Assembly: GCA_049997875.1 (NCBI GenBank)
Contig: JBEKRC010000004.1
Location: 8,928 to 72,927, forward strand
DNA: 64,000 nucleotides
Direction of reading: 5' to 3'
Origin: Minisyncoccia bacterium
GTDB lineage: Bacteria; Patescibacteriota; Minisyncoccia; UBA6257; 2-01-FULL-56-20
Positions 1 through 64,000 of the stretch are shown in pieces; the stretch's first letter is position 1; every line of letters begins with the position of its first letter. The translations under genes were made by a program, and so were the position numbers. The notes beneath the pieces are model-generated. The model did no database searches. It was not told the DNA's origin and saw only the letters and a list, made by a program, of their open reading frames with translations.

Positions 1-110
1 AAAAATGGGACTCAAGCACCTCGTACGGCGCCCCGTCCATAATAAAAAGAATCCCCTTAGTGAGATCAGTATAGGCCAGCGACATATTGGATAGGATTGT
101 AAACCAAAAA

Positions 111-135
111 CCGCCGGGATGCAACTCCTCGGCGG
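111..135. terminator. GC hairpin (CCGCCG/CGGCGG) flanked by an A-run and a T-run; bidirectional intrinsic terminator, downstream of the minus-strand KH/rpsP genes
   Basis: Sequence shows inverted repeat ccgccg...cggcgg with aaaccaaaaa upstream and ctttt downstream; on the minus strand the stem is followed by TTTTTGG. Confidence 0.55.
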
Positions 136-171
136 CTTTTGTGCGAAAGTGTTATACGTTGCGCGTATAGC

Positions 172-501
172 TTAGTACCCGTCGCGAGTCGCTTCCGGTC
201 TTCCTTCGCCTCTCGGTCGTTCGGTCCTCGGAGGCCTTGTGCTCCCTTCCGGCTCTTCAATCTTCAGATTCACGCGGGCGTTGTTCTTGACGCCGACGAT
301 CCTCAAAAGCGAGCGGATGGCCTTCGCGGTCGCGCCCTGACGGCCGACCACCTGGCCCATGTCCATCGCGTTCACGCGAAGGGAGAGCAAAACGCCCATT
401 TCGTCAACCTTTCGGTCAACCTTCACGTCCTCCGGATGGTCCACGAGAGACTTCACCAGATACTCAAGGAATTCCTGATCTGCAGTAGATGAATTCGCCA
501 T
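172..501 (-). CDS. KH-domain RNA-binding protein (KhpA/YlqC-like) with Arg/Glu-rich C-terminal tail
   Basis: 109-aa ORF; the VGxxIGRQGxTAKAIR-like KH motif (VVGRQGATAKAIRSLL) is present; it lies immediately downstream of rpsP, the conserved rpsP-KH arrangement. Confidence 0.75.
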   Translation of the reverse strand: MANSSTADQEFLEYLVKSLVDHPEDVKVDRKVDEMGVLLSLRVNAMDMGQVVGRQGATAKAIRSLLRIVGVKNNARVNLKIEEPEGSTRPPRTERPRGEGRPEATRDGY

Positions 502-51096: not shown

Positions 51097-51858
51097 TTAT
51101 GCGACCTTTTCAATTGCGTGCTCGTCAAAATCTTCGCCGTGCGAAACCGCTATGGCGACAAACACGAGGGTAAGCATCCCGAAGATGAACGCCTGGATGA
51201 ACCCGACGAAAATCTCCAAAAACATAAATGGCAAGGGCGCCAGGTACGGTACCAAAAAGGCCATGATGGCCAGAAGCACCTCCCCCGCAAAAATGTTCCC
51301 GAAGAGCCGGAATGAGAACGAAATAATCTTAGCAAATTCGGAGACAAGTTCAAGGATGCCCACGAAAAAGTCTATGGGCCCCTTGAAGTTGAAGAAAACC
51401 GAAAGGCGTGCCTTTAATCCAACGGCTGCTACGCCGAACGCGTTCGCGAAGGTGACCGCGATGAGCGCGAGCGCTAGCGTAAAGTTAAGGTCGCTCGCGG
51501 GCGAACGCAGGAGCGGGATCGCCCCGCCCCCCTGACGGACCACGATAGAACTCACTCCCGGGAAAAGCCCGAGCCAGTTTGAGCACAAAATGAAAAAGAA
51601 GACCGTGAACACGAGCGGCAGATATTTTTCCGCCTTTTTACGGCTGCCGAGCACGGAACTCATGAGGCCGAGGGCGCCCTCAAGGAGAATCTCTATGACG
51701 CCCTGTGCATTGCCGGGAACAAAAGAAAGTTTGCGCCGCAACGCGATCGCCACCACGGTCAAAAGCACAAAGACAAGCGCGGCCAGGAGGACCGCATTCG
51801 TCACCGGGAAGCTCCCGATGCGAAAAATCTCTTCCGCGCGAAGCGAAATTTGCAGCAT
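51097..51858 (-). CDS. atpB: ATP synthase Fo subunit a
   Basis: Five or six TM helices and the conserved Arg-containing helix (SFSFRLFGNIFAGE). Confidence 0.9.
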   Translation of the reverse strand: MLQISLRAEEIFRIGSFPVTNAVLLAALVFVLLTVVAIALRRKLSFVPGNAQGVIEILLEGALGLMSSVLGSRKKAEKYLPLVFTVFFFILCSNWLGLFPGVSSIVVRQGGGAIPLLRSPASDLNFTLALALIAVTFANAFGVAAVGLKARLSVFFNFKGPIDFFVGILELVSEFAKIISFSFRLFGNIFAGEVLLAIMAFLVPYLAPLPFMFLEIFVGFIQAFIFGMLTLVFVAIAVSHGEDFDEHAIEKVA

Positions 51859-53858: not shown

Positions 53859-55064
53859 TCAGAGATGCGCGAACGCTTCACTGAAGGTCGCAATGGTCCA
53901 CCTAGCGGACTTTTCGAGCGCACCGATAGTGTCGGCATACCGACAGAATCGGGCGTCGAACTCCACTGCGAAAGGATGACCAGTCTGGGCAGACCACTTG
54001 GCGCCGAGTTTAATCGTGTCGAGCTGGTCCTTCACCCACTCCGCGACACCTTCTCCGGGCAGAAAGTCGTTATCAACGTACTGCTGGAACTCCGAGGCAG
54101 GCGTGCCGCCCGGCTTGGACAGCAGCTCTGTGAAGCTCACAGTACCCAGTCCACCGGAGTTGAGATGTATCGCGCCGCCGAAGACACCTGCGTCGATTGC
54201 TTGTTGCATCGCAGCGGCGAACTTCTGGCCACCGCCACGACTGTGGCAGAATTCTCCTTGCCACTCGGCGACCATGGCTCCGGCCACCTTATTGATTTGC
54301 CGAACGCATTCAATCTCGAGCGAAGTGTCCGTGAATACGTCGAGATAGCAAGGATCGCCGGCAGGTTTGCCCTCGATTTTCAGCTTTGTGTTGGTAAACC
54401 CCCTTTCCCGAGCCATCTTCACGGCGTTGCCCACGCCGTTCACGATCAGACTCCACTCCTCGAGTTGCGGATTGAAATCGTGTCCGAGGAGCACGTCGTG
54501 ACCCTGGACGAGCCTCTTCCACCGAATGCCGTCCGGCCCTGTCCAAAAGATTACATCACCTTCGCTGCCTGCCATCTTGACACGGTCCGACCACTTGAAG
54601 CTGTAGATCAACATGTCGCTGGCTAGCTTTCGACGGATCGGATCTGGATTGATGAATGCTCCGTCATCGCTTCCGGGAAGACCGAACCCGGGAGGAACGA
54701 TGCGTCCGATCAGCGGGTAGTGGCCGCACAATGCGCCATCCATCCATTGATCGAGGGAGATACCCCGTGGATTGTTCCACTGGGCGCTGTAGCCAACTTC
54801 TGGCGCGTCATCGGGAACGCGCAGCTCGTGCCACCAGTGACCCGACACTGCGATCTCGATGCCGTGCTCGGCCATCAAGCGCTTGTTCAGTTGAGCAACC
54901 GCCCAGAGCGCTTCGGCCATAGTTGTATAACCACCGGCAGTCGGGTTCCCGAAGGCCATAATCTGCCTCAGGAGATGCCAGCTACCGACCAGTAACTTCA
55001 ACGTAGGCGCGTGTTTCATGCTGTACCATCCTTTTTGTGTCAGTCTTATTACGGTTGTGAACAA
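53859..55064 (-). CDS. Sugar isomerase of the L-rhamnose-isomerase (RhaA)-like TIM-barrel type
   Basis: 401 aa; IAVSGHWWHELRVPDD and LLGHDFNP resemble the E. coli RhaA motifs VSMHCWQGDD and GLDFNP; the assignment is tentative. Confidence 0.4.
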   Translation of the reverse strand: MFTTVIRLTQKGWYSMKHAPTLKLLVGSWHLLRQIMAFGNPTAGGYTTMAEALWAVAQLNKRLMAEHGIEIAVSGHWWHELRVPDDAPEVGYSAQWNNPRGISLDQWMDGALCGHYPLIGRIVPPGFGLPGSDDGAFINPDPIRRKLASDMLIYSFKWSDRVKMAGSEGDVIFWTGPDGIRWKRLVQGHDVLLGHDFNPQLEEWSLIVNGVGNAVKMARERGFTNTKLKIEGKPAGDPCYLDVFTDTSLEIECVRQINKVAGAMVAEWQGEFCHSRGGGQKFAAAMQQAIDAGVFGGAIHLNSGGLGTVSFTELLSKPGGTPASEFQQYVDNDFLPGEGVAEWVKDQLDTIKLGAKWSAQTGHPFAVEFDARFCRYADTIGALEKSARWTIATFSEAFAHL

Positions 55065-55612
55065 CCTCCGTTACATTAGTACGAATTAAGTTCTTGTCAA
55101 GAAATTCGGCCACACCCGTCAGTTCCGATTTCTGCCGCTGGTAGCAGTTCCGGACAAAAAACGAAAACGTAGCACACTCTGCGAGCGGCATTTTTCTTAG
55201 GGTCTTATTAACCCTGGGTAGGTCACTTTCACCAAAACTGTCTGCTCTGGCAGTTGGAATCGAAACGCAATAGAGCCACATTCAATACCCTCGCATGAGA
55301 TTTTTATAGACCATGTTGAAAACGGCCGTACCGTGGAGCCGCCGGGATTTGCGCCCGATTCTTCGCTTTCCAAAGACGATATTCTAACTGTAATAAACTA
55401 CGGCCCCGTCTCCACGGCGCGCTTACCATAGCAAAAACACGATTAAAATTATTTAAAATGCAAACGGCCACAAAAGTGGTCGTTGCACGGAAAGCGAAGA
55501 ATTAATCCGTAGTCATACAGACTAATACCGTCTTCCTAAAAAGGATAGCGCTCCCGAGCAAAAAGTCAAACATCGTTTAATAAAAATTTAATGTCCCCGA
55601 GAACAACGAAGC

Positions 55613-55754
55613 GCCGCAGTGCTTTTGAGAGGATCGCGCAGCCCCGTTCGGCTTGGTCCGAAATGCCGTTGCGTGCATTTCGGCGAACGGGGCGAGCGGC
55701 AAGAAAAATTTCTCGCCGGAAGAAATTTATTCTGGCTCTCAAAAGCACTGTGGC
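55613..55754. repeat. ~140-nt nested inverted-repeat (long-stem hairpin) element immediately 3' of ftsX
   Basis: The outer 15-19 bp arms (gCCGCAGTGCTTTTGAGAG ... CTCTCAAAAGCACTGtGGC) enclose the inner inverted repeats CCCCGTTCG/CGAACGGGG, CCGAAATGC/GCATTTCGG and GGCGAG/CTCGCC. Confidence 0.6.
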
Positions 55755-55760
55755 GCGAGC

Positions 55761-56672
55761 CTAGTTTCGTAGGTACCGCCTGACCGCAATAAAACTGGAA
55801 AGTCCGCCGATCACAACACCGAAGAGAAGTTCGTAAAGGAAAAATTGCAGGAGATGGACATAGAAATATCGAAAAATGCTCAAGCCGGGGATGAACACAT
55901 CAAGATACGGCGAAACGAAATAAAGCATGGGCGCGATCAGGATCAGGCTGACGACCGTTGAAATCGCGCCGCAGAGCACGCCCTCCACCACGTACGGCCC
56001 GCGTACGAGGGCATTGGAAGCGCCCACCACGCGCATGACGCCGATCTCCTCGCGGTTGGAATAGATGGCGAGGCGGATCGTATTGAAAGCCACGAGCCCG
56101 GCGATGAGCGCGAGAAGCAGCGCGACGACAAATCCGCCGGTCTCCACCGTTTTAACGATCTTTGCGAGCCTTTCAATCACGGTCTGGTTATTGTAATAGC
56201 TCGGCTGGCCATCAAGGTACTGCGTGATGTCGGGCGAGCTCAAGTATTGCGCGATCGCCGCGTACTGGCTCGGATCCTTCGCTTTGATATTGAGCGACGC
56301 TTCCAGCGGATTCGTATCAAGTTCGTTGATCGCCTGGCTCACGGTCGCATCGCTCGCGTGGTTTTGCTTGAAGATCGCGAGCGCCTGATCGCGCGAAATA
56401 TAACTCACGCTCTGCACCTCCGATAATCCCTCAAGCGACTGCTGGATGTTCAAAATCTGGTCCTCGGAGGTGTTCGTATTGAAGTACACGCTGATGTCAA
56501 TCTTGTCTTGGATGGAGGCAGCGGCGCGGTCGGTGATCACGCCGAAAATGATGAGCGAACCGAATACGAAAAGCGCAACGGTCATGATGGCCATCGTCGC
56601 CATGGAAAGCCACCCGTTCCGCCGGAAGTTCTTCAGCCCGAATTGGAAGATGCGCGAAATGACCGTGATCAT
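55761..56672 (-). CDS. ftsX: Cell division permease-like protein FtsX
   Basis: 303 aa; N-terminal TM, large periplasmic loop, three C-terminal TM helices; follows ftsE. Confidence 0.85.
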   Translation of the reverse strand: MITVISRIFQFGLKNFRRNGWLSMATMAIMTVALFVFGSLIIFGVITDRAAASIQDKIDISVYFNTNTSEDQILNIQQSLEGLSEVQSVSYISRDQALAIFKQNHASDATVSQAINELDTNPLEASLNIKAKDPSQYAAIAQYLSSPDITQYLDGQPSYYNNQTVIERLAKIVKTVETGGFVVALLLALIAGLVAFNTIRLAIYSNREEIGVMRVVGASNALVRGPYVVEGVLCGAISTVVSLILIAPMLYFVSPYLDVFIPGLSIFRYFYVHLLQFFLYELLFGVVIGGLSSFIAVRRYLRN

Positions 56673-56674
56673 GG

Positions 56675-57358
56675 TTACACCAGAATATATTTTCCTTTTT
56701 GCTCGTCGCGAATGAGCCGTCCGCGGTCCAGCGTGATCACTCTTTTCTCCAGACTGTTGATCACTTCTTTGTCGTGGGTCGCAAGCACGACCGTCGTACC
56801 GAGCTGGTTGATCTTCTCCAAAAGCTTCACGATCTCAAACGTATGAAACGGATCAAGGTTGCCCGTCGGCTCGTCGGCGATCACGACTTCCGGCCGGTGG
56901 ATCATCGCCCGCGCGATCGCCACGCGCTGCCGTTCGCCGCCCGAAAGTTCGCTCGGAAAATTTCTCATCTTGTCCCCCAATCCTACCATGTCCAGCACTT
57001 GAGGAACGAGCTCCGCGATCTCCCGCTGCGGCCGCCCTGCCACCTCAAGCGCGAATGCCACGTTTTCATACGCGTTTTTAGTCGGGAGGAGCCGAAAGTC
57101 CTGGAATACGACGCCAATGTGCCGCCGGAAGGCAGGCAATTCCTTATCCACCAATTTGTTCACTTCGTACTGCCCAAAAAATACCCGCCCCTTCGTGGGT
57201 TTTTCCTCGCCGATCAGAAGCTTGACGACGGTGGACTTTCCCGCGCCCGATCTGCCCGCGAGAGACACGAATTCCCCGGGATCAATCTGGAACGATACTT
57301 CCTCCAGCGCCGTGGCTTCGTGATTGTAATGCTTGGAAACTGTCTGGAAAACGATCAT
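56675..57358 (-). CDS. ftsE: Cell division ATP-binding protein FtsE
   Basis: Walker [25 protein letters not shown], Walker [13 protein letters not shown]; 227 aa. Confidence 0.9.
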
Positions 57359-57381
57359 GAAATTCGCTGTTAATTTGTATT

Positions 57382-58432
57382 CTATAACATTTCAAGCTCC
57401 GCTTCAATGAACAGGTCTAGGTCGCCCGCGAGCACTGCGTCCACTTTCGCCGTTTCCGCCTCCGTGCGGTGGTCCTTCACCATTTGGTAAGGGTTCAGAA
57501 CATACGAACGGATCTGGTTTCCCCACTCGGGCTTTACCTTCACGCGCAACGCGCCGATCTCGCTCACCTTTTCCTTCTCCATCAGATTAAAAAGCTTCGC
57601 CTTGAGGAGCTTGAGCGCATACGCGCGGTTCTGCGCCTGCGAGCGCTGCGCTTGCGAACTTACGGCGAGCCCGGTCGGGAGATGCACCACGCGCACTGCC
57701 GTTTCCACCTTGTTCACATTCTGTCCGCCCGGACCGCCCGAGCGATAGAATTCAAATTTAAGGTCTTTTTCCGGGATCTGCAGTTTTGATTCTTCAAGCG
57801 GCGGCAAATCCGGAATCACTTCCACGAGCGCGAACGACGTGTGTCGCAGCTTTTTAGGCGAAAACGGCGAAATACGCACAAGGCGGTGGACGCCGGATTC
57901 TTTCTTCAAATATCCGTAGGCGTAATCCCCTTTTATTTCCACTGTCCGCGAGCGGATGTTGTCGTCAATCACCCGCAGCTTCCATCCGCGCCGCTTCGCG
58001 TAACTTTCATACATAACGCCCAGCATCCGCGCCCAGTCCTCTGCATCCTCGCCGCCCGCGCCGGGATAAACCGCGAGCACTGCCGCCTGTATGTCATAGC
58101 GCCCGACAAACAGCTGCTTCAGTTCAAACTCCTTGAATTTCTTTTTCAGTTCGTAAAATTTCGCTTCGTCAAAACTCTCGCCGCCTGCCGCGGCCATGAG
58201 TGCCGCGATGCCACTTTCAATTTCGCGGTACTGTACCACGAGATCATTCAGAACTCCCAGCTCTTTGATTGCTTCATCTGCCGCTGCGCGGTTTTTCCAA
58301 AACGCCCCGTCGGCCATCTCGGCCGTGAGTTCCTTTATTCTCTTTTCACTTGCGGCCAAGTCAAAGCCGCCCGCCTAACCGGCGGGCATCGGTCGCAAGC
58401 TCATCTAATTCTTTTCTTGTGTTTGTATCCAT
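57382..58432 (-). CDS. prfB: Peptide chain release factor 2, with the programmed +1 ribosomal frameshift (CTT TGA C at 58360..58366)
   Basis: Frame 0 (ATG 58432) encodes [23 protein letters not shown] and stops at an in-frame TGA within CTTTGAC; the +1 frame continues [12 protein letters not shown]... through SPF (RISPFSPKK) and GGQ ([11 protein letters not shown]). An SD-like GGCGGGCGG precedes the shift site. Confidence 0.9.
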
Positions 58433-58544
58433 CTTCGTTTCGTCGGATTCGCGGCGCAGCAGCGGCAGGAACGCGCGCTCTCCGACGGCGCGCCGCTGCT
58501 TTTTGCCATACATTCAATATACCATAACCCTTTGAGCCGGAGAG

Positions 58545-58616
58545 AGGAGTCGAACCTCCAACCTCTGCTTTACGAAAGCATTGCTCTGCCATTGAGCTAC
58601 TCCGGCGACAATGAAA
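58545..58616 (-). tRNA. tRNA-Thr (anticodon CGU)
   Basis: Hand-folded: acceptor GCCGGAG/CTCCGGC, D-arm GCTC-AATGGCA-GAGC, anticodon loop TTCGTAA, T-arm GGAGG-TTCGACT-CCTCT (one G-U), discriminator U; 72 nt. Confidence 0.8.
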
Positions 58617-58690
58617 ATCTAGCAAATTTTTCCGAATATGAAAAGGGTGCGATTGACGGAAGCGCCGCGCTCGTGCTACCATGCGCAGGT

Positions 58691-58939
58691 ATGAAAAAGG
58701 ACATTCACCCGACGTATTTCCCCCAAGCCCATGTCGTCTGCGCATGCGGCAACACGTTCACCGTGGGCGCAACGAAGGCCGAGATCAAAGTTGAGATCTG
58801 TTCCCATTGCCACCCGTTCTACACGGGCGAAGAGAAGCTGATAGACACCGCTGGCCGCGTGGAGAAGTTCAAGACGCGCCGCGCGAAAGCCGTTCGCAAG
58901 CCGAAACCGAAGAAGGTGCGGGCTAAAAAAACGCGTTAA
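58691..58939 (+). CDS. rpmE: 50S ribosomal protein L31 (type A, zinc-binding)
   Basis: [26 protein letters not shown]...[11 protein letters not shown]; the ATG at 58691 is preferred, because the track ORF start lies antisense to the tRNA. Confidence 0.85.
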
Positions 58940-58972
58940 CGGGCGCCGGCAACAAAAGGCGATCTCCATCCG

Positions 58973-59722
58973 TCATATCGTTGGAATACTGAACGAGAAA
59001 GCGGATCCCTTGCCCTCGCCTTCGGACGATACCGAAATTTTCCCGTTATGGGCTTCCACGAACATCTTCGCGACGTGGAGGCCAAGGCCGCTGCCGCGGA
59101 TCTCGCCCTTCACGCGCTCGTCGCGGACGAACTCCTCAAACAAAAACGGCTGGACTCCCTCCGAGATGCCGATCCCGGAATCCGCGACCGAAAGCACGAC
59201 ATTTCCGTCCTTCTCTTCCACGTTCACCTTTACAAAACCTTTTTCGGTGTACTTCACGGCGTTGTCAACCAAATTTTTTATCACGTGCTGCAGCTTTTGC
59301 TCATCGCCATAGATCATGATCTCTTTTTGCGGCGCCTGGAATTCCAAATTCAGGCCTTTGCTTGACGCAAGATGGCCCAGTTCCTCCGCCGCCTGTCGCG
59401 CGAGTTTCACGAAATCAATGTTCGCCATTTGATATTCAATCCTCCCCTCTTCAATCTTGCGAAGATCTATCACATTGTCCACAAGGTTCACGAGGTCTTC
59501 GGCTGCAAACTCAATTTTTGCCATGACTTCTCTCGCGCGGTTGTCTATTTCGCCGTAATAGCCGTCACGCAAGAGCGCCGCGTAGCCGCGGATAATGCCC
59601 AATGGCGCCTTCATCTGATGCGACGTGAGCGCCAAAAGATGCGTCTTGAAATGGTTCAGGTCATTGAGCTTTCTGTTGTCCTCCTCAAGCTTCTTGCGAA
59701 GCTCGTCAGCATCGGCGCTCAT
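58973..59722 (-). CDS. Cytoplasmic histidine kinase (HisKA + HATPase)
   Basis: H-box LTSHQMKAPLGIIRGYAALL, N-box NLVDNAVKYT, G-boxes DSGIGI / GSGLGL; ATG at 59722. Confidence 0.8.
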   Translation of the reverse strand: MSADADELRKKLEEDNRKLNDLNHFKTHLLALTSHQMKAPLGIIRGYAALLRDGYYGEIDNRAREVMAKIEFAAEDLVNLVDNVIDLRKIEEGRIEYQMANIDFVKLARQAAEELGHLASSKGLNLEFQAPQKEIMIYGDEQKLQHVIKNLVDNAVKYTEKGFVKVNVEEKDGNVVLSVADSGIGISEGVQPFLFEEFVRDERVKGEIRGSGLGLHVAKMFVEAHNGKISVSSEGEGKGSAFSFSIPTI

Positions 59723-59768
59723 GCTTATATGATACCAAGCCGTTTTAACTCTCGCTCTGCAACGAGGG

Positions 59769-60167
59769 TCACTTTTTTGCGAGCATTTCCCGCACCCTTG
59801 CCACAATCACATTCAGGTCCGCGGTCTTATCAATGTAATCCTCCATGCCCAATCCCTTCGCGAGCCTATCGCGGTCGCCCTGGGTCGCGGGCCATGGATC
59901 TTTCAGGTTGCTCAGAAACGCGATTTTTATGTCTTTTGTCTCCGGATTCTGTTTGATCGCAAGCGCCGCATCGGTACCGGTCTCCCCGCCGGGCATGCGG
60001 ACGTCCATAAGAACAAGGTCGGGGTGCAATTTCGCCGCGGCATCAACTCCCTCTTTGGCATTGTAGGCCACCACGGGATCAAAGCCGGATGCCCCAAGCT
60101 TCACGGACATAATTTCCAGAAGTTCGTGCTCGTCGTCAACAATGAGGACAAGCGGTTTTTCCCTCAT
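59769..60167 (-). CDS. Single-domain response regulator (CheY-like receiver)
   Basis: LIVDDE, phospho-acceptor Asp in LVLMDVRMP, conserved Lys; 132 aa. Confidence 0.85.
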   Translation of the reverse strand: MREKPLVLIVDDEHELLEIMSVKLGASGFDPVVAYNAKEGVDAAAKLHPDLVLMDVRMPGGETGTDAALAIKQNPETKDIKIAFLSNLKDPWPATQGDRDRLAKGLGMEDYIDKTADLNVIVARVREMLAKK

Positions 60168-60553
60168 GAAAGCAGTGCCGTTATCTTTTCCGCAAGCACG
60201 TCAAGGTCGTCGGTCTTTTTGAGGTACCCCTGCGCGCCGAATTCTTCGGAGAATTTCCTGTTGATGTCCTGCATGTCCAAGCGCGGGTCGCCCAGGCTCG
60301 TAAGAAATGCCACCTTGATGTCTTTCAATGCCGGGTCTTCCTTCATTTTGAGCACCGCCGTCGCGCCGTCCATCACCGGCATCTTGACATCCATAAGGAC
60401 AAGGTCGGGCTTTGCTTTCGCCATCTTAAGGAGCGCCGCTTGTCCGTCCTCCGCGGTATCCACGCGATAGCCCATCGCCAAAAGTTTGGTTTGGAAAATC
60501 TCGCGGAAATCCGGCTCGTCGTCAACAATCAGTATGAATGGTTGCCCTGCCAT
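60164..60553 (-). CDS. Single-domain response regulator (CheY-like receiver), tandem paralog
   Basis: LIVDDEPDFREI, LVLMDVKMP; 129 aa; overlaps the upstream receiver gene by 4 nt. Confidence 0.85.
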   Translation of the reverse strand: MAGQPFILIVDDEPDFREIFQTKLLAMGYRVDTAEDGQAALLKMAKAKPDLVLMDVKMPVMDGATAVLKMKEDPALKDIKVAFLTSLGDPRLDMQDINRKFSEEFGAQGYLKKTDDLDVLAEKITALLS

Positions 60554-60583
60554 TGATGTACTATTATTATATCATACGAAGCG

Positions 60584-61318
60584 ATGACAACGGATAAAAT
60601 AATTCTTGAAATACGGGCTGGCGCGGGCGGTGACGAAGCCGCCATTTTCGCGGGCGATCTCGCGCGCATGTACCAGCGCTACGCGATGAGGCGCAGGTGG
60701 GTGTTTTCCGTACTTGATTCCAGTGCGACCTCGCTCCAAGGATTCAAATCGCTCGTGGCCGAAGTGCAAGGCGCGGGATGCTACGAGGCGCTTCGGAACG
60801 AATCCGGCGTGCACCGCGTGCAGCGAATCCCGGCAACGGAAAAATCGGGGCGCGTGCACACCTCCACTGCCTCGGTGGCCGTGTTACCAATCGTGGAAGC
60901 GCGCGAGGTAAGCATCGCACCTGGCGACATTGAGGCGACATTCTCTCGCGCCGGCGGTCCGGGAGGGCAGAACGTGAACAAGGTAGAAACGGCCGTACGG
61001 ATCCTCCATAAACCGACCGGCATTGTCGTTTCCTCGCGCGAGGAACGCTCCCAGCACGCGAACCGCGAAAAAGCGATGGATGTCCTCCGCGCGAAACTGT
61101 ACGAAATGGAACAGCGCAAGGCAGTGGGATCCGTGACTGACCTCCGCCGCGAACAGGTCGGCAGCGCCGACCGCTCGGAAAAGATCCGCACCTACAATTT
61201 TCCCGATGACCGCATCACCGACCATCGCATTGGGAAAAAATGGCACAATATTGAAAAGATCATGGACGGCGACATGGACCCGATCGTGAAGGCGTTCACA
61301 AAAAATACCACGAATTAA
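60584..61318 (+). CDS. prfA: Class-I release factor of the RF1 type (PxT + GGQ) lacking the N-terminal domain 1
   Basis: PAT tripeptide ([14 protein letters not shown]) and GGQ ([17 protein letters not shown]) are present; the protein starts at the domain-2 region ([20 protein letters not shown]). 244 aa versus ~360 for RF1; there is no upstream coding space on this strand. Confidence 0.7.
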
Positions 61319-61336
61319 AAATTCATTAAAAATAAT

Positions 61337-61364
61337 TTGACAAGGCGTGTTGCAAAGCTATACT
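61337..61364 (+). promoter_or_regulatory. Near-consensus sigma70 promoter TTGACA-N16-TATACT
   Basis: Seen directly in the sequence; there is no protein-coding gene downstream on the plus strand. Confidence 0.5.
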
Positions 61365-61370
61365 GAATAA

Positions 61371-61498
61371 AATCCATTATCTCATGGGGCAGAAAGCCAG
61401 AAAGACGGCTTTGCTGCGGGGTGGGATTTCTCAATGGAATCCCATTACGATGGAGGAATCGCGCCGCCCTCCCTGCTCCATATGATAGTGGACTTTTT
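61371..61498 (+). ncRNA. Candidate small structured RNA transcribed from the consensus promoter; function unknown
   Basis: Nested hairpins predicted by eye: GCAGAAAGCC/GGCTTTGCTGC, TGGGATT-loop-AATCCCA, GGAGG-loop-CCTCC, ATGGAG..CTCCAT. It ends with a TTTTT run at 61494..61498 and lies antisense to the 3' end of ORF 61445..61906. Confidence 0.35.
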
Positions 61499-61906
61499 GA
61501 TATATGAGGGTCTGGTAGGAAAAAATGTGACGCAGAAGGGAACTTCTCCATAGTCCTTTACGCAAATCTCAAGCGGGCACGCCAAAAATTTCCTTTCGCG
61601 GAACTTTCTGAAAAATATAAAATCGCCCCGGTCGCCGAATCTCGGCAATGAAATATAATCGGGTTTTTGAAAAACTGCAGAAAGGTCACTGAGATAATTT
61701 ATTGTGAACTCCGGTCGCTGATCATACGCGTGTTTCAAGCTCCAGGTTGAAGTGTATACATTTGGCGAGGAGAATTTACTGTGCAAGCGGAGAAAACTGT
61801 ATACCTCCATTGGAATACGACTGATCAGTACGTCGTATAAAGCTATGGGAGCTTTCGGCGGGGTACCCAAAATCTGCTCCGCGAAAATACGTTTATATTT
61901 CTCCAT
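61445..61906 (-). CDS. Hypothetical protein (153 aa), AT-rich
   Basis: Non-repetitive ORF with no motifs. A palindromic hairpin GAGCTACC-ccat-GGTAGCTC lies directly upstream of its ATG; an alternative-frame ORF (61315..61551) overlaps its 3' end, so a frameshifted or longer gene is possible. Confidence 0.35.
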   Translation of the reverse strand: MEKYKRIFAEQILGTPPKAPIALYDVLISRIPMEVYSFLRLHSKFSSPNVYTSTWSLKHAYDQRPEFTINYLSDLSAVFQKPDYISLPRFGDRGDFIFFRKFRERKFLACPLEICVKDYGEVPFCVTFFPTRPSYIKKSTIIWSREGGAIPPS

Positions 61907-61933
61907 GAGCTACCCCATGGTAGCTCAACAAGA

Positions 61934-62443
61934 TTAAAAAAATCTTAAATTATCTTCCCTAATCTCGTACCTCGCAATCGTTTTCCCGTCGTCGCTAAAA
62001 TAGAATTTTCCCGCAATCAATTTCCCTTGCAATACCTCGGGCAGCCAAAGCCGGTCGTCCGGCCACATGGCATCAAACGGGATCTCGCTGAACTTGAACC
62101 ACTGCGGCCGCATTTCCTCAGACTCGGTCGGTTCGCCCACCCATCGCTTCACAAAAAAGATGTGTACGCGCTGGTTCCAGTCAGGTTTATGTTCAAAAAA
62201 GAAATCCAGAACGGCGTACTTTTTGAGGTCGCCCATAGAAATCTTTAGGCCAATTTCTTCTTCCAATTCCCGTACCGCAGCAGCTTCAATGGACTCCCCT
62301 TCCTTCGGTTTTCCGCCAATGCCATTCCAACGGCCAGCGCCGAACCCGCGCTTTTTCATGCCGAGAAGTATGGAAACCTCCGTAAGCGGCAGGCAAAGGG
62401 TCGTGTCCAGCATATCTCGGGACGTAAAATGTTCCACGCTCAC
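61934..62443 (-). CDS. NUDIX hydrolase (MutT-like)
   Basis: Nudix box GGKPKEGESIEAAAVRELEEEIG. Confidence 0.85.
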   Translation of the reverse strand: MSVEHFTSRDMLDTTLCLPLTEVSILLGMKKRGFGAGRWNGIGGKPKEGESIEAAAVRELEEEIGLKISMGDLKKYAVLDFFFEHKPDWNQRVHIFFVKRWVGEPTESEEMRPQWFKFSEIPFDAMWPDDRLWLPEVLQGKLIAGKFYFSDDGKTIARYEIREDNLRFF

Positions 62444-63510
62444 ACAAGGATCTTCGCGGTCTGTTTAATGAGCGACAACGCCACCGGCGCGGGCAACAAA
62501 CTATACGAGGGCACACCGTCAGCATCAACGATCCAAGGAGTTTCAATGATCTTGATCTTCTTCGTTTTTTCGTCTCTCTCGTACCCGTACACGGGCGTGA
62601 CCTCATAGTCGTCCACAAAATTGGCCGCCTTATCCACCGGCACCGAGTTTCTTAACAACACTTTGGGAACCCCGGTGAGCGTGAAGAGCTGCCGGAATAT
62701 TTTCTCGTCGGCCGTGAGGCGGGCGCGGATCGGTTCAATCCCGAGTTCATCGCCCTCCTTCGGCAACATCCGCGCTCCGTGGCACGACGGAGTATCGCAC
62801 ATCAGATAAAACACCTTTTTTTCTTCGTCGTAGCCGATCTCTTTCGTGGGAGCCAATTTCGTATTGCGGGGAACCTTGCAGATGGGGCACACCACGCGCG
62901 TTTTGATACGCTCGTCAATGACGGCGTTCGGAACGTCAATAAACACAAAGAAGTCCGGCTCGCCATGATACCCCAAAAGTTCCCTCAAAAAAATTGAATA
63001 ATGGATTTGATCAAGCCCGCGCGGGAACCCGTCAATGAAGATCGCCTGCCGTGGACGCTTGCTCACCTCGTATTTCAAAAGAGCGATGATAAGCTCGGTG
63101 GATACGAGCGTGGACTGGCTCCGTCCTTCAATCAAGCCGTCTATTTCCTTCAATGAGTGGAAACCGCGATAATGTTTCTCCAAGAACATAGAAAGTTCTT
63201 TTTTCTTTTTGGGATCCGAAAGTCCCGCGTGCACGTCGCGGACGATATCCCCCACCGCCACGTGGCCGACATGGGTGCTGCCCACTGCTTCCATAAAAAG
63301 CTTGGAGTAAGTCCCTTTCCCGGAATTCTTTTTTCCCAAAAGATATGCCACGAACGCTTTCCCGCTTTCAAGATATTTCCTTATCGCCGCAATTTCCTTT
63401 CCCGCTTTCAGCGAAAAATACTCTCGGCGATCGTCCAAGTCGTTCAAGTTGAATTTTTTGGTGACGTCCTGAACTTTGGTTTTGAAAACGGGGAATTCCA
63501 GATCTTTCAT
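62440..63510 (-). CDS. adk: Adenylate-kinase-family protein, long variant with Zn-lid and N- and C-terminal extensions
   Basis: P-loop GKKNSGKGT, FIDGFPR NMP-binding motif, Cys4 lid (CPICK...CDTPSC); 356 aa versus ~215 for canonical Adk. Confidence 0.55.
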   Translation of the reverse strand: MKDLEFPVFKTKVQDVTKKFNLNDLDDRREYFSLKAGKEIAAIRKYLESGKAFVAYLLGKKNSGKGTYSKLFMEAVGSTHVGHVAVGDIVRDVHAGLSDPKKKKELSMFLEKHYRGFHSLKEIDGLIEGRSQSTLVSTELIIALLKYEVSKRPRQAIFIDGFPRGLDQIHYSIFLRELLGYHGEPDFFVFIDVPNAVIDERIKTRVVCPICKVPRNTKLAPTKEIGYDEEKKVFYLMCDTPSCHGARMLPKEGDELGIEPIRARLTADEKIFRQLFTLTGVPKVLLRNSVPVDKAANFVDDYEVTPVYGYERDEKTKKIKIIETPWIVDADGVPSYSLLPAPVALSLIKQTAKILV

Positions 63511-64000
63511 TTCTTTTTCTTAATTTCCAATCCTAGCTCGTCCAATTGCTTCTTGTCCACCGCGGACGGCGCGGTCACGACGGCGGTCTGTCCGCCGGAA
63601 CTCGCGGGGAAGGCGATCACCTCGCGGATGCTCCTTTCCCCAAGCGCGGCGTAGAGGAATCGGTCCAGTCCCGGCGCGATGCCGCCGTGCGGAGGCACTC
63701 CGTATGTGAACGCGTTCAAGAAATAATCAAACTGTTCCTTTTGCCCGCGGCTGAACCCAATCAGGTCAAACACTTTCTCCTGAATTTCCCTCTGATGGAT
63801 ACGAATGCTGCCGCCGCCTACTTCAAAACCGTTCAGTACCATATCATGCTGCAAGCCGCGGACTTTCGTCGGATCGGTATCCAAAAGCGAAATATCGTCC
63901 GGGTGCGGCGCGGTGAACATATGGTGGGACGGCGCGAATTTCGCGCTGCCGGAGCCGTGGAAAAAATCCTCTTTGGTCTGTTCCGTGAAAAGCGGGAAGT
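63507..64000 (-). CDS. aspS: Aspartate--tRNA ligase, C-terminal part (gene continues past the window end)
   Basis: Class II aaRS motif 3 region NGFEVGGGSIRIH...GVPPHGGIAPGLDRFLYAALGERSIREVIAFP; there is no start within the window. Confidence 0.8.
   Translation of the reverse strand, partial: FPLFTEQTKEDFFHGSGSAKFAPSHHMFTAPHPDDISLLDTDPTKVRGLQHDMVLNGFEVGGGSIRIHQREIQEKVFDLIGFSRGQKEQFDYFLNAFTYGVPPHGGIAPGLDRFLYAALGERSIREVIAFPASSGGQTAVVTAPSAVDKKQLDELGLEIKKKK

Follow-up and report, generated by a model that had tools for sequence, protein, structure and literature searches.

In the type I toxin–antitoxin systems txpA/RatA and bsrG/SR4 of Bacillus, a convergently transcribed antitoxin RNA overlaps the 3′ end of the toxin gene. 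The locus described here resembles these systems, as well as bsrE/SR5 of B. subtilis and Fst/RNAII of the Enterococcus par locus, in having a convergent putative antitoxin RNA whose sequence complements the toxin mRNA at its 3′ end, and also in the strong promoter belonging to the RNA, the sequestered toxin start and the variable genomic contexts. The small hydrophobic peptide that is typical of type I systems, albeit not universal among them, is absent: where the Bacillus and Enterococcus toxins are hydrophobic peptides of <60 aa, the protein here is a predicted RNase of 137–190 aa with a BECR fold. The overlap in our locus also holds coding sequence, with codons constrained by the RNA, and the RNA itself folds into a covarying four-way junction, conserved over deep divergence and containing single-stranded nucleotides that do not vary, whereas we know of little that is conserved in type I antitoxins beyond complementarity. 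Nuclease-type toxins under a small antisense RNA are represented in Escherichia coli by SymE/SymR and RalR/RalA. The overlap of SymR with symE is at the 5′ end and takes in the ribosome-binding site, in contrast to the 3′ overlap here, and RalA pairs through a short, Hfq-assisted stretch; the folds of SymE (AbrB-like) and RalR (a DNase) are unrelated to that of the toxin here, and a conserved architecture of several RNA helices is found in neither.

The type III systems ToxIN, CptIN and TenpIN, and AbiF/RCd22, likewise combine an endoribonuclease-type toxin with a conserved structured RNA whose sequence and structure are conserved beyond antisense needs. Their antitoxins are toxin-processed tandem repeats on the same strand, upstream of the toxin gene, whereas the RNA here is a single, convergent, overlapping copy at 15 of 16 loci, the only exception being the locus L098. 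Their toxins belong to the ToxN/AbiQ or Abi_2 kind, whereas ours is PBECR3/BECR and falls in none of the ToxN/AbiQ, CptN or TenpN families. The invariant unpaired nucleotides of the RNA would nonetheless be compatible with direct binding to the toxin, as in type III systems. One such RNA, the abiF motif, was found as a gene-linked motif by comparative genomics and later shown to neutralize AbiF by direct binding (PMC12373285).

Our protein family shares a homologous domain and a K-H catalytic-type motif with polyvalent proteins (PF18812) of phages and conjugative elements and with BECR toxins, among them colicin D, CdiA-CT and RelE. Elsewhere PBECR3 occurs as domains of large phage proteins, whereas here it forms standalone small proteins on Patescibacteria chromosomes; known BECR toxins have protein immunity or antitoxin partners, whereas here no conserved partner protein gene was seen, and an RNA stands in that place.

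The locus is a previously undescribed two-gene cassette of Patescibacteria (CPR bacteria), found in a 64-kb stretch of DNA (hereafter, the window). We read positions 61318–61946 (~630 bp) as a self-contained two-gene unit of the toxin–antitoxin kind with an RNA antitoxin, a reading to which we assign a probability of about 0.55. The RNA most likely keeps the toxin in check, and by sequence the cassette appears to combine a type I-like layout with a type III-like conserved fold. A full-text search of the literature found neither an account of this RNA nor any report of PBECR proteins with an RNA partner.

The RNA and its promoter

The plus-strand part of the cassette contains the following features.

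61318–61336 (+): A/T-rich conserved element, AAAATTCATTAAAAATAAT, directly 5′ of the −35 box
61337–61364 (+): sigma-70-type promoter, TTGACA (61337–61342), 16-nt spacer, TATACT (61359–61364); score 11/12
about 61371–61498 (+): structured non-coding RNA of ~125 nt, four-way junction P1–P4 with a U-run end, from the fold and covariance model
61373–61392 (+): P1 5′ strand, comprising P1a (61373–61381), a 2-nt bulge and P1b (61384–61392); partner 61473–61492
61393–61412 (+): P2 hairpin, AAAGCC / AGAAAGAC / GGCUUU, preceded by GAA
61413–61420 (+): junction J2/3 and start of P3, GCUGCGGG, CUGC invariant in the conservation line
61417–61449 (+): P3 hairpin, variable in length and sequence between members
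61452–61472 (+): P4 hairpin, GGAGG, 11-nt loop, CCUCC; opposite toxin codons R-E-G-G-A-I-P-P
61473–61492 (+): P1 3′ strand, CUGCUCCAU, AU, GAUAGUGGA; within the toxin coding sequence (CDS), opposite codons S-T-I-I-W-S-R
61493–61498 (+): U-run CUUUUU after P1, present in the window; putative intrinsic terminator

The original prediction singled out a near-consensus promoter among the best in the window, in an AT-rich patch and with no coding gene downstream on the plus strand. All three points hold. The promoter is one of four sites scoring at least 11/12 on both strands of the window, where shuffles predict 0.5, and it is the top-scoring site within 55000–64000; the patch has 41–45% GC as compared to 50–64% in the flanking genes. 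At least 12 of the 15 canonical homologous loci carry TTGAC[AGT]-16/17-TA[TC]A[CA]T at a constant distance from stem P1. Upstream of it, a AAAAAWNCATTAAA motif occupies the equivalent position in L091, L093, L094, L095 and L097 despite differing flanking genes, and the element at 61318–61336 could be UP-like, a cassette boundary or both. A similarly strong promoter also precedes the tRNA-Lys gene within the window.

We placed the 5′ end of the RNA from the −10 box and its 3′ end from the U-run. The segment 61371–61500 (+) folds with −58.4 kcal/mol, as compared to −38.1 ± 3.8 for shuffles (z = −5.3; 0 of 200 shuffles equal), into a four-way junction with a long closing stem followed by CUUUUUG (61493–61499), in keeping with the nested helices and U-run end foreseen for the transcript. 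Our covariance model found a family of 16 members; the window RNA, which is among the nine training sequences of the model, scores 150 bits against it. Across these members, double changes affect 27 of the 44 pairs, and pairing holds in 94.8% of cells, as compared to 43–49% with the partners slid, and none of 500 shuffles attains the observed values. Covariance analysis in relatives thus upholds the fold.

The helices differ in how this variation is distributed. Consensus P1 has 22 pairs, of which 15 show changes on both sides, with 94.7% of cells paired; such changes affect 9 of 13 pairs in P3 and 3 of the 5 pairs in P4, which directly follows an invariant ACGAUGG. P2 is kept in all 16 members and is nearly invariant as GAAAGYCAGRAA..GGCU. 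Because P2 lies outside every toxin CDS, coding does not explain its conservation. The unpaired nucleotides of J1/2, the P2 loop, J2/3 and J3/4 are also invariant, including parts outside any CDS, and a search of the unpaired columns for pseudoknot or tertiary covariation found no pair with compensatory double changes.

Twelve of 16 members have a run of at least four U residues, and the run is weak in L096, L097 and L098. It lies directly 3′ of a multi-branch closing stem rather than a simple hairpin, it was not listed by a consensus terminator scan, and on the opposite strand it codes for two consecutive lysines of the toxin. Because the U-run encodes Lys-Lys, its presence is not independent evidence for a terminator role; transcription may stop there.

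Two further open reading frames had been noted around the RNA. The plus-strand peptide ORF exists at 61384–61485, with 33 rather than 32 aa, and is unconserved; we rejected a functional peptide because the ORF is absent or shortened in most homologous RNAs. The alternative-frame ORF of 78 aa (61315–61551, minus strand) is mechanically present and appears spurious as a gene, its sequence recurring only as the tails of two frameshifted homologs, P0004 and P0006.

The overlapping gene and its predicted toxin

The minus strand carries the gene and its leader, and the gene shares its 3′ end with the RNA.

61445–61906 (−): gene for a 153-aa standalone PBECR3-like protein with the BECR RNase-toxin fold, a putative toxin
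61445–61498: overlap of the RNA with the toxin CDS, the last 17 codons and the stop
61907–61926 (−): hairpin of the toxin 5′ leader, GAGCUACC AUGG GGUAGCUC, abutting the AUG (61906); fold z = −4.4
61930–61946 (−): conserved AAGAWTTTTTTAAT element, ~25–40 nt 5′ of the toxin AUG

The ORF at 61445–61906 is a genuine gene. Among 109 aligned family members, 86 match Pfam PBECR3 (PF18812) at E ≤ 0.001 (best 5e-13), and PBECR3 and PBECR2 are the only Pfam matches in the family. The window protein itself is below the Pfam threshold, with no match to PF18812 at E ≤ 10; P0002, which is 49% identical to it, reaches 30.6 bits against a cutoff of 30. The residues K58, H59 and D62 (K-H-x-x-D motif) are invariant in all 109 sequences, which places the catalytic-type residues of the family as in BECR enzymes, with a His in the pre-alpha/alpha element and a Lys before it. 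A survey of BECR proteins describes a K-H motif likewise in colicin D, PBECR3 and CdiA-CT EC869 (bioRxiv 10.64898/2026.08.28.747851).

The 153-aa window protein is soluble and shows the BECR alpha/beta fold, and its homologs measure 137–190 aa. Because this fold (Barnase-EndoU-ColicinE5/D-RelE) is that of RNA-cleaving toxins, we predict that the protein is one, and it would be toxic to the cell. A second conserved His, in a C-terminal P-H-R motif, is found in the major subfamily and is absent from the subfamily of the window protein. Together with the sub-threshold Pfam score, this absence makes the catalytic competence of the window protein uncertain. Disorder is predicted for the tail encoded within the RNA overlap. 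No relatives emerged from a profile search of PDB sequences, a Foldseek search of the PDB found nothing significant and the PADLOC defense models contain no match for the protein family. Structurally, the protein is closest to tRNases.

The RNA had been proposed to be antisense to the 3′ end of a minus-strand ORF, and the overlap at 61445–61498 bears this out. Within the CDS, cis-complementarity is perfect over 54 nt in the window and extends over ~90 nt in the major subfamily. Nucleotide identity is 0.81 in the overlap as compared to 0.55 in the rest of the gene, and codon identity given the same amino acid is 0.88 as compared to 0.44. As judged from these alignments, synonymous sites are frozen in the overlap, and only there. 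The toxin stop codon of the window coincides with the P3/J3-4 boundary of the RNA; in the major subfamily, whose C-terminal peptide is strongly conserved, the bases directly 5′ of the invariant CUGC are those of the stop, UAG, in complementary form (CUA). From the segment CCATCGTA, one subfamily translates P-S-stop and the other P-H-R-S, so that the same conserved nucleotides are used in different frames. The original prediction overlooked both the homology of the ORF to nuclease toxins and the fact that the RNA is a covarying family that constrains the codons it overlaps.

The leader hairpin is predicted to occlude the ribosome-binding region and start codon of the toxin mRNA. A hairpin abutting or containing the AUG is present, with compensatory changes, in the window and in L090, L091, L092, L093 and L095; in the last four, hairpins of other sequence (GAGGC/GCCUC, GUUAC/GUGAC) pair the AUG itself. 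No such hairpin was seen in L094 or L097. Close control of this sort is typical of toxins. The AAGAWTTTTTTAAT element is found in the window and in L090, L091, L092, L093, L094 and L095 although the upstream genes differ, and it could be a −10-like box (TTTAAT), a second cassette boundary or both. By inspection, complementarity between the RNA and the toxin start region amounts to only 6 nt in the window and is unconserved.

The pair in other loci

The RNA is convergent to a homolog of the gene at 15 other metagenomic loci, where it overlaps the last 17–30 codons; toxin identity falls to ~30%, and the promoter is usually conserved. The maintenance of promoter, fold and gene partner across 15 independent homologous loci places the feature far beyond chance. 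In canonical members, a convergent PBECR3-like ORF ends within the RNA, with the exception of L100, where no intact ORF was found; the arrangement is the same in L120, from a low-GC genome, whose protein is 34% identical. The neighboring genes vary by locus (NUDIX, GNAT, histidine kinase, RuvB and IS1595). Of the identities first suggested for the RNA, a type I toxin–antitoxin-like arrangement therefore fits best, given that its partner is a gene for a predicted PBECR3/BECR-fold RNase and that the pair recurs as a unit in unrelated neighborhoods. The conserved −35 and −10 boxes, the covarying fold and the gene linkage also agree with the suggestion of a small, promoter-driven, non-coding antisense RNA. 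The −35 and −10 boxes are kept and the sole gene is the 153-aa ORF, the opposite of a locus in which the boxes drift while the minus-strand ORFs merge into a single conserved protein.

The exception to convergent single-copy overlap, L098, is a short contig of 847 nt with a promoterless RNA copy and a degenerate copy, both upstream of a divergent toxin homolog on the same strand. This layout makes cis-antisense pairing impossible there. Being one short contig that includes a degenerate copy, L098 may be a rearranged remnant.

The cassette is absent from the RF1 locus of the closest relative (L001). BLASTN and nhmmer searches with the RNA found no matches in 80 loci obtained via the upstream RF1 gene, and the covariance model found none in 636 kb of other RF1 loci; RF1 synteny is therefore uninformative, and the RNA travels with the minus-strand gene. 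The NUDIX genes of the window and L001 are only 28% identical, so we can claim the absence of the cassette and not an insertion site. Within the window, the only additional model match is the reverse strand of the RNA itself, and there is no second copy. Strict DNA patterns had 0 matches in viral and metagenome contigs, whereas a relaxed pattern returned 21 loci, comprising nine true members (six distinct sequences) and 12 chance matches in coding DNA. IMG/VR gave no match in two DNA-pattern scans or in a single protein scan, and INPHARED phages and PLSDB plasmids yielded no relatives.

Mechanism and competing explanations

We infer from the sequence that the RNA is transcribed, that it represses the toxin and how it might do so. 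The RNA would be transcribed head-on into the toxin gene, so that the final 17 codons of the toxin mRNA find a perfect complement in the 3′ half of the RNA, and the strong promoter of the RNA would supply it in excess. It would pair with the 3′ end of the mRNA, probably entering via the exposed P4 loop before duplex extension, and pairing would lower toxin synthesis via duplex-dependent mRNA decay, transcriptional collision or both. The leader hairpin over the start codon may provide self-repression of the toxin mRNA, and when RNA synthesis is off, the toxin would be expressed. The invariant four-way-junction core, parts of which lie outside the toxin gene, probably also offers a folded surface for recognition; its most plausible partner is the toxin protein, which it would bind as type III antitoxins do. 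Pure antisense needs no conserved sequence, yet between members whose toxins share only ~30% identity the loops and junctions beyond the overlap do not vary, which argues that base pairing is not the whole story.

Several observations count against parts of this proposal. The complementary segment is mostly buried in P4 and the P1 3′ strand of the RNA; the toxin is a 150-aa predicted RNase and the typical type I toxin a small membrane peptide; and the window protein is sub-threshold in Pfam and without P-H-R.

A minority reading that deserves weight is that the folded RNA binds and inhibits the nuclease in a type III-like or other RNA–protein complex, possibly as a substrate decoy, with the overlap only securing joint inheritance. 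Its topology is cloverleaf-like (2-nt J1/2, 4-bp P2 with an 8-nt loop and 5-bp P4 stacked on P1), the nearest structural relatives of the protein cleave tRNA, and covariation preserves a three-dimensional architecture in which J1/2, the P2 loop, J2/3 and J3/4 are unpaired and invariant, some of them outside any CDS. In L098 the RNA copies form a tandem that shares the strand of the toxin gene and precedes it, and the abiF RNA motif offers a precedent (PMC12373285). A purely trans-acting protein binder, however, does not need the convergent overlap that is kept at 15 of 16 deeply diverged loci; repeat arrays are lacking at the canonical loci, the toxin falls outside the ToxN/AbiQ/AbiF group, the RNA shows no similarity to the tRNA model at E ≤ 10, and L098 is that single 847-nt contig, which may be a remnant. 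The same junction core shows conservation of the kind known from riboswitch aptamers, and with a U-run directly after P1 and a strong, constitutive-type promoter facing the toxin gene, it could form a ligand- or signal-sensing antisense switch: P1 and the U-run would act as a terminator that stops transcription at 61498 when the junction is stabilized and otherwise allows read-through that silences the toxin, or the logic could be reversed. Read-through would silence the gene through colliding polymerases or through antisense transcription. Antisense RNAs under riboswitch control have precedents, such as the B12 riboswitch and AspocR in Listeria. Such a switch is nevertheless improbable, given that no anti-terminator pairing is conserved (GCAG with the CUGC of J2/3 fails in L101 and L102), the neighboring genes share no metabolic theme, no Rfam riboswitch is similar and the U-run is weak in several members.

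Two further explanations carry the least weight. The structure could belong to the toxin mRNA, as a 3′ untranslated region (UTR) stabilizer or terminator on the minus strand, or be a by-product of a conserved C terminus with a fortuitous plus-strand promoter. The reverse complement does fold better than shuffles (z = −3.4), and the C-terminal peptide of the major subfamily is highly conserved. Yet the non-canonical helix pairs across the family comprise 83 G·U and only 9 A·C, so the helices hold on the plus strand alone and the structure belongs to it; covariance-model scores are 55–152 bits on the forward strand and 17–43 bits on the reverse. The promoter position kept in at least 12 of 15 loci, the most conserved segment (P2 and J2/3) lying outside the CDS in the window subfamily, the change of frame over identical nucleotides and the confinement of frozen synonymous sites to the overlap leave this explanation highly improbable. 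Hardly tenable is a housekeeping or general regulatory RNA (6S, SRP or tRNA-like), or a 33-aa peptide gene, independent of the minus-strand ORF. The RNA fold is compact and stable, and the promoter resembles that 5′ of the tRNA-Lys of the window. However, Rfam 15, which includes riboswitch, ribozyme, ToxI and abiF-motif families, matched at gathering thresholds only four tRNAs elsewhere in the window, and at E ≤ 10 it gave only two chance snoRNA matches within 61200–62000 (E = 6.8 each); the tRNA model detects no similarity at E ≤ 10, and ARAGORN calls neither a tRNA nor a tmRNA in the region. The RNA is also missing from the syntenic region of the closest relative and from the 80 RF1 loci (636 kb), it is always accompanied by a PBECR3-like gene and the peptide ORF is lost or truncated in most members. 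The 6S- or SRP-like identity floated initially therefore fails, the RNA occurring only beside the toxin-like gene.

Returning to the RNA antitoxin, we put forward as a tentative and rather doubtful refinement that the RNA is a new class of protein-binding antitoxin, a type I/III hybrid: a single-copy, cloverleaf-shaped, antisense-overlapping RNA that in its folded state also acts as a decoy for, or an inhibitor of, a tRNase-like toxin with the BECR fold. If this is true, the colicin/RelE/CdiA superfamily would have its first RNA immunity factor, and the sequence of the RNA would dictate part of the toxin coding, in two frames in two subfamilies. The ~630-bp, two-part cassette is amenable to direct testing in E. 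coli.

Patescibacteria make up a large share of bacterial diversity and are mostly uncultured, and we know of almost no described regulatory RNAs among them. The cassette adds to this poorly charted group an RNA family outside Rfam that is supported by covariation and tied to a defined protein partner. With its frozen synonymous sites and two-frame reading, it usefully illustrates how constraints on an RNA and on a protein can overlap. Antitoxin control by RNA would, with such a partner, also reach the BECR superfamily, which includes colicins D and E5, CdiA-CT, RelE and the PBECR domains.

A structured RNA behind a near-consensus promoter

The original prediction placed a near-consensus sigma-70 promoter and a folded transcript, with no gene behind them, on the plus strand of a locally AT-rich patch. 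TTGACA (61337–61342) and TATACT (61359–61364), separated by 16 nt, match the consensus at 11 of 12 positions and form the top-scoring site of the 9 kb scanned. Our own scan of both strands of the 64 kb found four sites with at least 11 matches, where shuffling leads one to expect 0.5. No plus-strand gene was found downstream of the promoter, and the patch is lower in GC than its neighbours. The other three sites (9610, 17661 and 51894) are all on the minus strand; they comprise TTGAAA-17-TATAAT upstream of tRNA-Lys, a perfect TTGACA-16-TATAAT (12/12) upstream of an HrcA-like ORF, and TTTACA-16-TATAAT upstream of the ORF at 51097–51858. Because of these matches, we take the organism to use canonical sigma-70 signals.

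The 130 nt from 61371 (+) fold at −58.4 kcal/mol, compared with −38.1 ± 3.8 in dinucleotide shuffles (z = −5.3; 0 of 200 shuffles), into a predicted four-way junction:

61373–61392 with 61473–61492, plus strand: P1, the long closing stem
61393–61412, plus strand: P2, a hairpin
61417–61449, plus strand: P3, a hairpin
61452–61472, plus strand: P4, a hairpin

CUUUUUG follows immediately 3′ of P1, so the nested helices and the terminal U-run originally described both hold. The region matches no Rfam family at gathering thresholds or at E ≤ 10, contrary to the idea of a known non-coding RNA, and ARAGORN found no tRNA or tmRNA there. The plus-strand peptide first proposed (32 aa; 33 aa in our analysis) falls away, as its ORF is not conserved among the homologous RNAs.

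We built a covariance model of the RNA from nine sequences. In the 16-member model alignment, standard pairs fill 94.8% of cells, a fraction inflated because the alignment was fitted to the model, as opposed to 43–49% with the 3′ partners shifted by 1–3 columns. Double changes affect 27 of 44 pairs (P1, 15/22; P3, 9/13; P4, 3/5), and 0 of 500 column shuffles match the observed covariation values. An independent MAFFT/RNAalifold analysis of nine sequences returned an identical structure, in which 16 pairs covary. Within the helices, G·U pairs number 83 and A·C pairs 9, and the model scores 55–152 bits on the forward strand and 17–43 bits on the reverse; together, these asymmetries assign the structure to the plus strand. 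Of the 15 canonical loci, at least 12 keep a promoter with 16–17-nt spacing, ending 1–7 nt before the model start. The comparison with relatives that the original prediction proposed thus favours the RNA, and the sequence evidence makes it very probable that the structured RNA is real and transcribed in its own right.

The overlapping minus-strand gene

The RNA is antisense to the 3′ end of a minus-strand ORF (61445–61906, 153 aa), as first read, and the same overlap recurs in homologous loci. The window protein itself has no Pfam match (below threshold). Three iterative searches of a 5.8-billion-protein collection yielded 2, then 10, then 112 homologues, and HMMER, run over all 1.84 billion cluster representatives, yielded 301 clusters at E ≤ 1e-3 (207 at E ≤ 1e-10); among the 150 matches listed, all are about 95–213 aa with one matched region each. 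Pfam PBECR3 (phage Barnase-EndoU-ColicinE5/D-RelE-like nuclease 3) is matched by 86 of 109 aligned members (best E, 5e-13). K58, H59, D62 and P82 are invariant throughout the family, and a survey of the Barnase-EndoU-ColicinE5/D-RelE (BECR) fold highlights a Lys-preceded His for colicin D, PBECR3 and CdiA-CT EC869 (bioRxiv 10.64898/2026.08.28.747851). Family-level sequence, fold and motif evidence places the window protein, itself below the Pfam threshold, in the PBECR3/BECR superfamily, with the caveat on nuclease assignment that a C-terminal P-H-R-S motif conserved in the major subfamily of homologues is missing from the window subfamily. We regard the ORF as a real gene for a predicted toxin of this nuclease family. 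The few named sources of homologues all belong to the Candidate Phyla Radiation (Moraniibacteria, Vogelbacteria and the Parcubacteria group), in keeping with the affiliation that RF1 relatives indicate for the window. No relatives were found in viral and plasmid collections.

Codon use in the overlap points to constraint from the RNA. Across the 17 overlapped codons, the same amino acid is encoded by the same codon in 88% of pairwise comparisons versus 44% elsewhere in the gene, and nucleotide identity is 0.81 versus 0.55 in the remaining gene. In the major subfamily the P4 loop has 4 nt fewer, and this difference changes the frame in which the invariant CCATCGTA (complementary to UACGAUGG in the RNA) is translated: Pro-His-Arg-Ser there, Pro-Ser-stop in the window subfamily. 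Over CCATCGTA, conservation extends to the nucleotides and not to the frame. Within the RNA, invariance is strongest in GAAAGYCAGRAA, GGCU, CUGC and ACGAUGG, most of which lie outside the coding sequence in the window subfamily. P3 is longer in the major subfamily (contigs L100, L101, L102 and L120), where a conserved internal loop, UAGUAGAC, stands opposite AUCCAA or AUCGAA; its AGUA/GAA element recalls a loop-E or sarcin-ricin-type motif, and the corresponding toxin tail on the other strand, PHRSALDTPKESTNAPQ, hardly varies.

A stable hairpin (61907–61926, minus strand; z = −4.4) lies directly upstream of the toxin AUG (61906). Four homologous loci (L091, L092, L093 and L095) have hairpins of other sequence at the equivalent place, with the AUG itself paired; none is evident in L094 and L097. 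By analogy, the hairpin resembles the built-in translational block of mRNAs for toxic proteins. Homology between loci stops at a conserved AAGAWTTTTTTAAT box farther upstream, beyond this hairpin, and at a AAAAAWNCATTAAA box on the far side of the RNA promoter, which sets the cassette at about 61318–61946.

Recurrence of the cassette

Inspecting the region downstream of the gene in the contigs of nine homologues, we found the same RNA in L090–L097, convergent to the gene and overlapping its 3′ end. The RNA is far better conserved at the nucleotide level than the gene: the window and L091 share 49% protein identity and about 85% RNA identity. When JGI metagenome contigs were scanned with a relaxed DNA pattern, L100, L101, L102, L104, L114 and L119 joined the family (the L101 RNA is identical to those of L106, L108 and L110); 12 other matches, unrelated coding DNA that failed the covariance model, were rejected. 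A protein HMM identified a convergent homologous ORF ending within the RNA in every new member but L100, whose partner ORF is apparently disrupted. L120, picked as a distant test (34% protein identity across 65% of the length, in a genome of about 30% GC), carries the RNA (47 bits, E about 1e-11) in the canonical position after TTGAAA-17-TATAAT. In a control of 636 kb of RF1 loci, many of them patescibacterial, the model had no match at E ≤ 1. The census covers 16 loci of a protein family of roughly 300 clusters; within it, functional coupling of the RNA to the nuclease gene is highly likely from sequence.

Neighbours vary by locus (NUDIX, GNAT acetyltransferase, histidine kinase, RuvB/LexA and IS1595 transposase), and in the nearest relative (RF1 81% identical) the gene after RF1 follows with no cassette in between. 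An unusually large number of independent metagenome contigs terminate inside or right beside the RNA (L085, L086, L088 and L089, ending at window position 61418 or 61387, and L092, L095 and L098), which suggests that the assembly graph branches where a conserved sequence meets differing flanks; such branching would reflect presence/absence polymorphism or several cassette versions per community.

The surrounding genes have features of their own. RF1 (60584–61318, plus strand), with PAT and GGQ motifs, is short at 244 aa and lacks N-terminal domain 1, as its Pfam PCRF match begins at profile position 101. The nearest relatives, L001–L009, share this short form (241–249 aa); RF1 is about 320–330 aa in other Parcubacteria and about 360–370 aa in cyanobacteria. 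Only 30 nt separate RF1 from an upstream divergent response-regulator gene; tandem receiver-only response regulators (132 and 129 aa) and a histidine kinase lie just upstream (59769–60553 and 58973–59806, minus strand), and L001 also keeps the regulator pair. A membrane histidine kinase directly precedes the toxin gene in L114 and L119. In the window, a second release-factor gene, RF2 (about 57382–58513, minus strand), lies about 3 kb upstream of RF1 and is divided between ORFs of 50 aa and 311–325 aa; CTT TGA C, the classical site of +1 frameshifting, lies near 58365, directly after a GC-rich hairpin. The RF1–aspS interval varies between close relatives; a 356-aa protein (62440–63510, minus strand) has a weak, partial adenylate-kinase match (residues 132–232), and L001 has a nucleoside-diphosphate-kinase-like gene in its place.

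A candidate RNA-restrained nuclease

We read the locus as a putative toxin–antitoxin-type cassette in which the RNA would restrain the nuclease gene, and we put the probability that it represses or neutralizes the gene or its product at roughly 0.6. A strong RNA promoter would face a putative toxin gene with weak signals; overlap guarantees complementarity between the RNA and the toxin mRNA, which would also be self-repressed. If repression occurs, we lean slightly toward antisense pairing as the main mode, with direct protein binding almost as probable. The junction core is invariant across toxins only about 30% identical and is not needed for pure antisense action, suggesting that a partner likely recognizes the fold; by analogy with type III systems and the RNA-neutralized AbiF/RCd22 (PMC12373285), the nuclease itself would be the most plausible partner.

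L098, an 847-nt contig and the one locus with a deviating layout, bears on this choice. A promoter-less RNA copy (67 bits) and a degenerate copy (11.6 bits) lie in tandem at 44–321 (+), upstream of a divergent toxin homologue (390–824, +) that shares their strand but lacks the C-terminal tail typical of the family; read on its other strand, the well-scoring copy still resembles a decayed toxin C-terminus (..RRDSSPP..). This layout fits a trans-acting, protein-directed role and could be type III-like, or else the contig could be the remnant of a rearrangement. The RNA might also work as a riboswitch-like terminator switch, but no conserved alternative pairing was found in the RNA family.

The putative cassette shares with type I systems a convergent, 3′-overlapping antitoxin layout and complementarity, but its toxin-like protein is not a small peptide; it differs from type III systems in both repeat array and toxin family. 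Full-text literature searches turned up neither this RNA nor any RNA that partners PBECR or BECR toxins. The RNA lies outside every Rfam family and constitutes a new one; the predicted cassette would join it to a toxin superfamily not previously paired with an RNA, in a hybrid architecture of RNA-antitoxin cassette.
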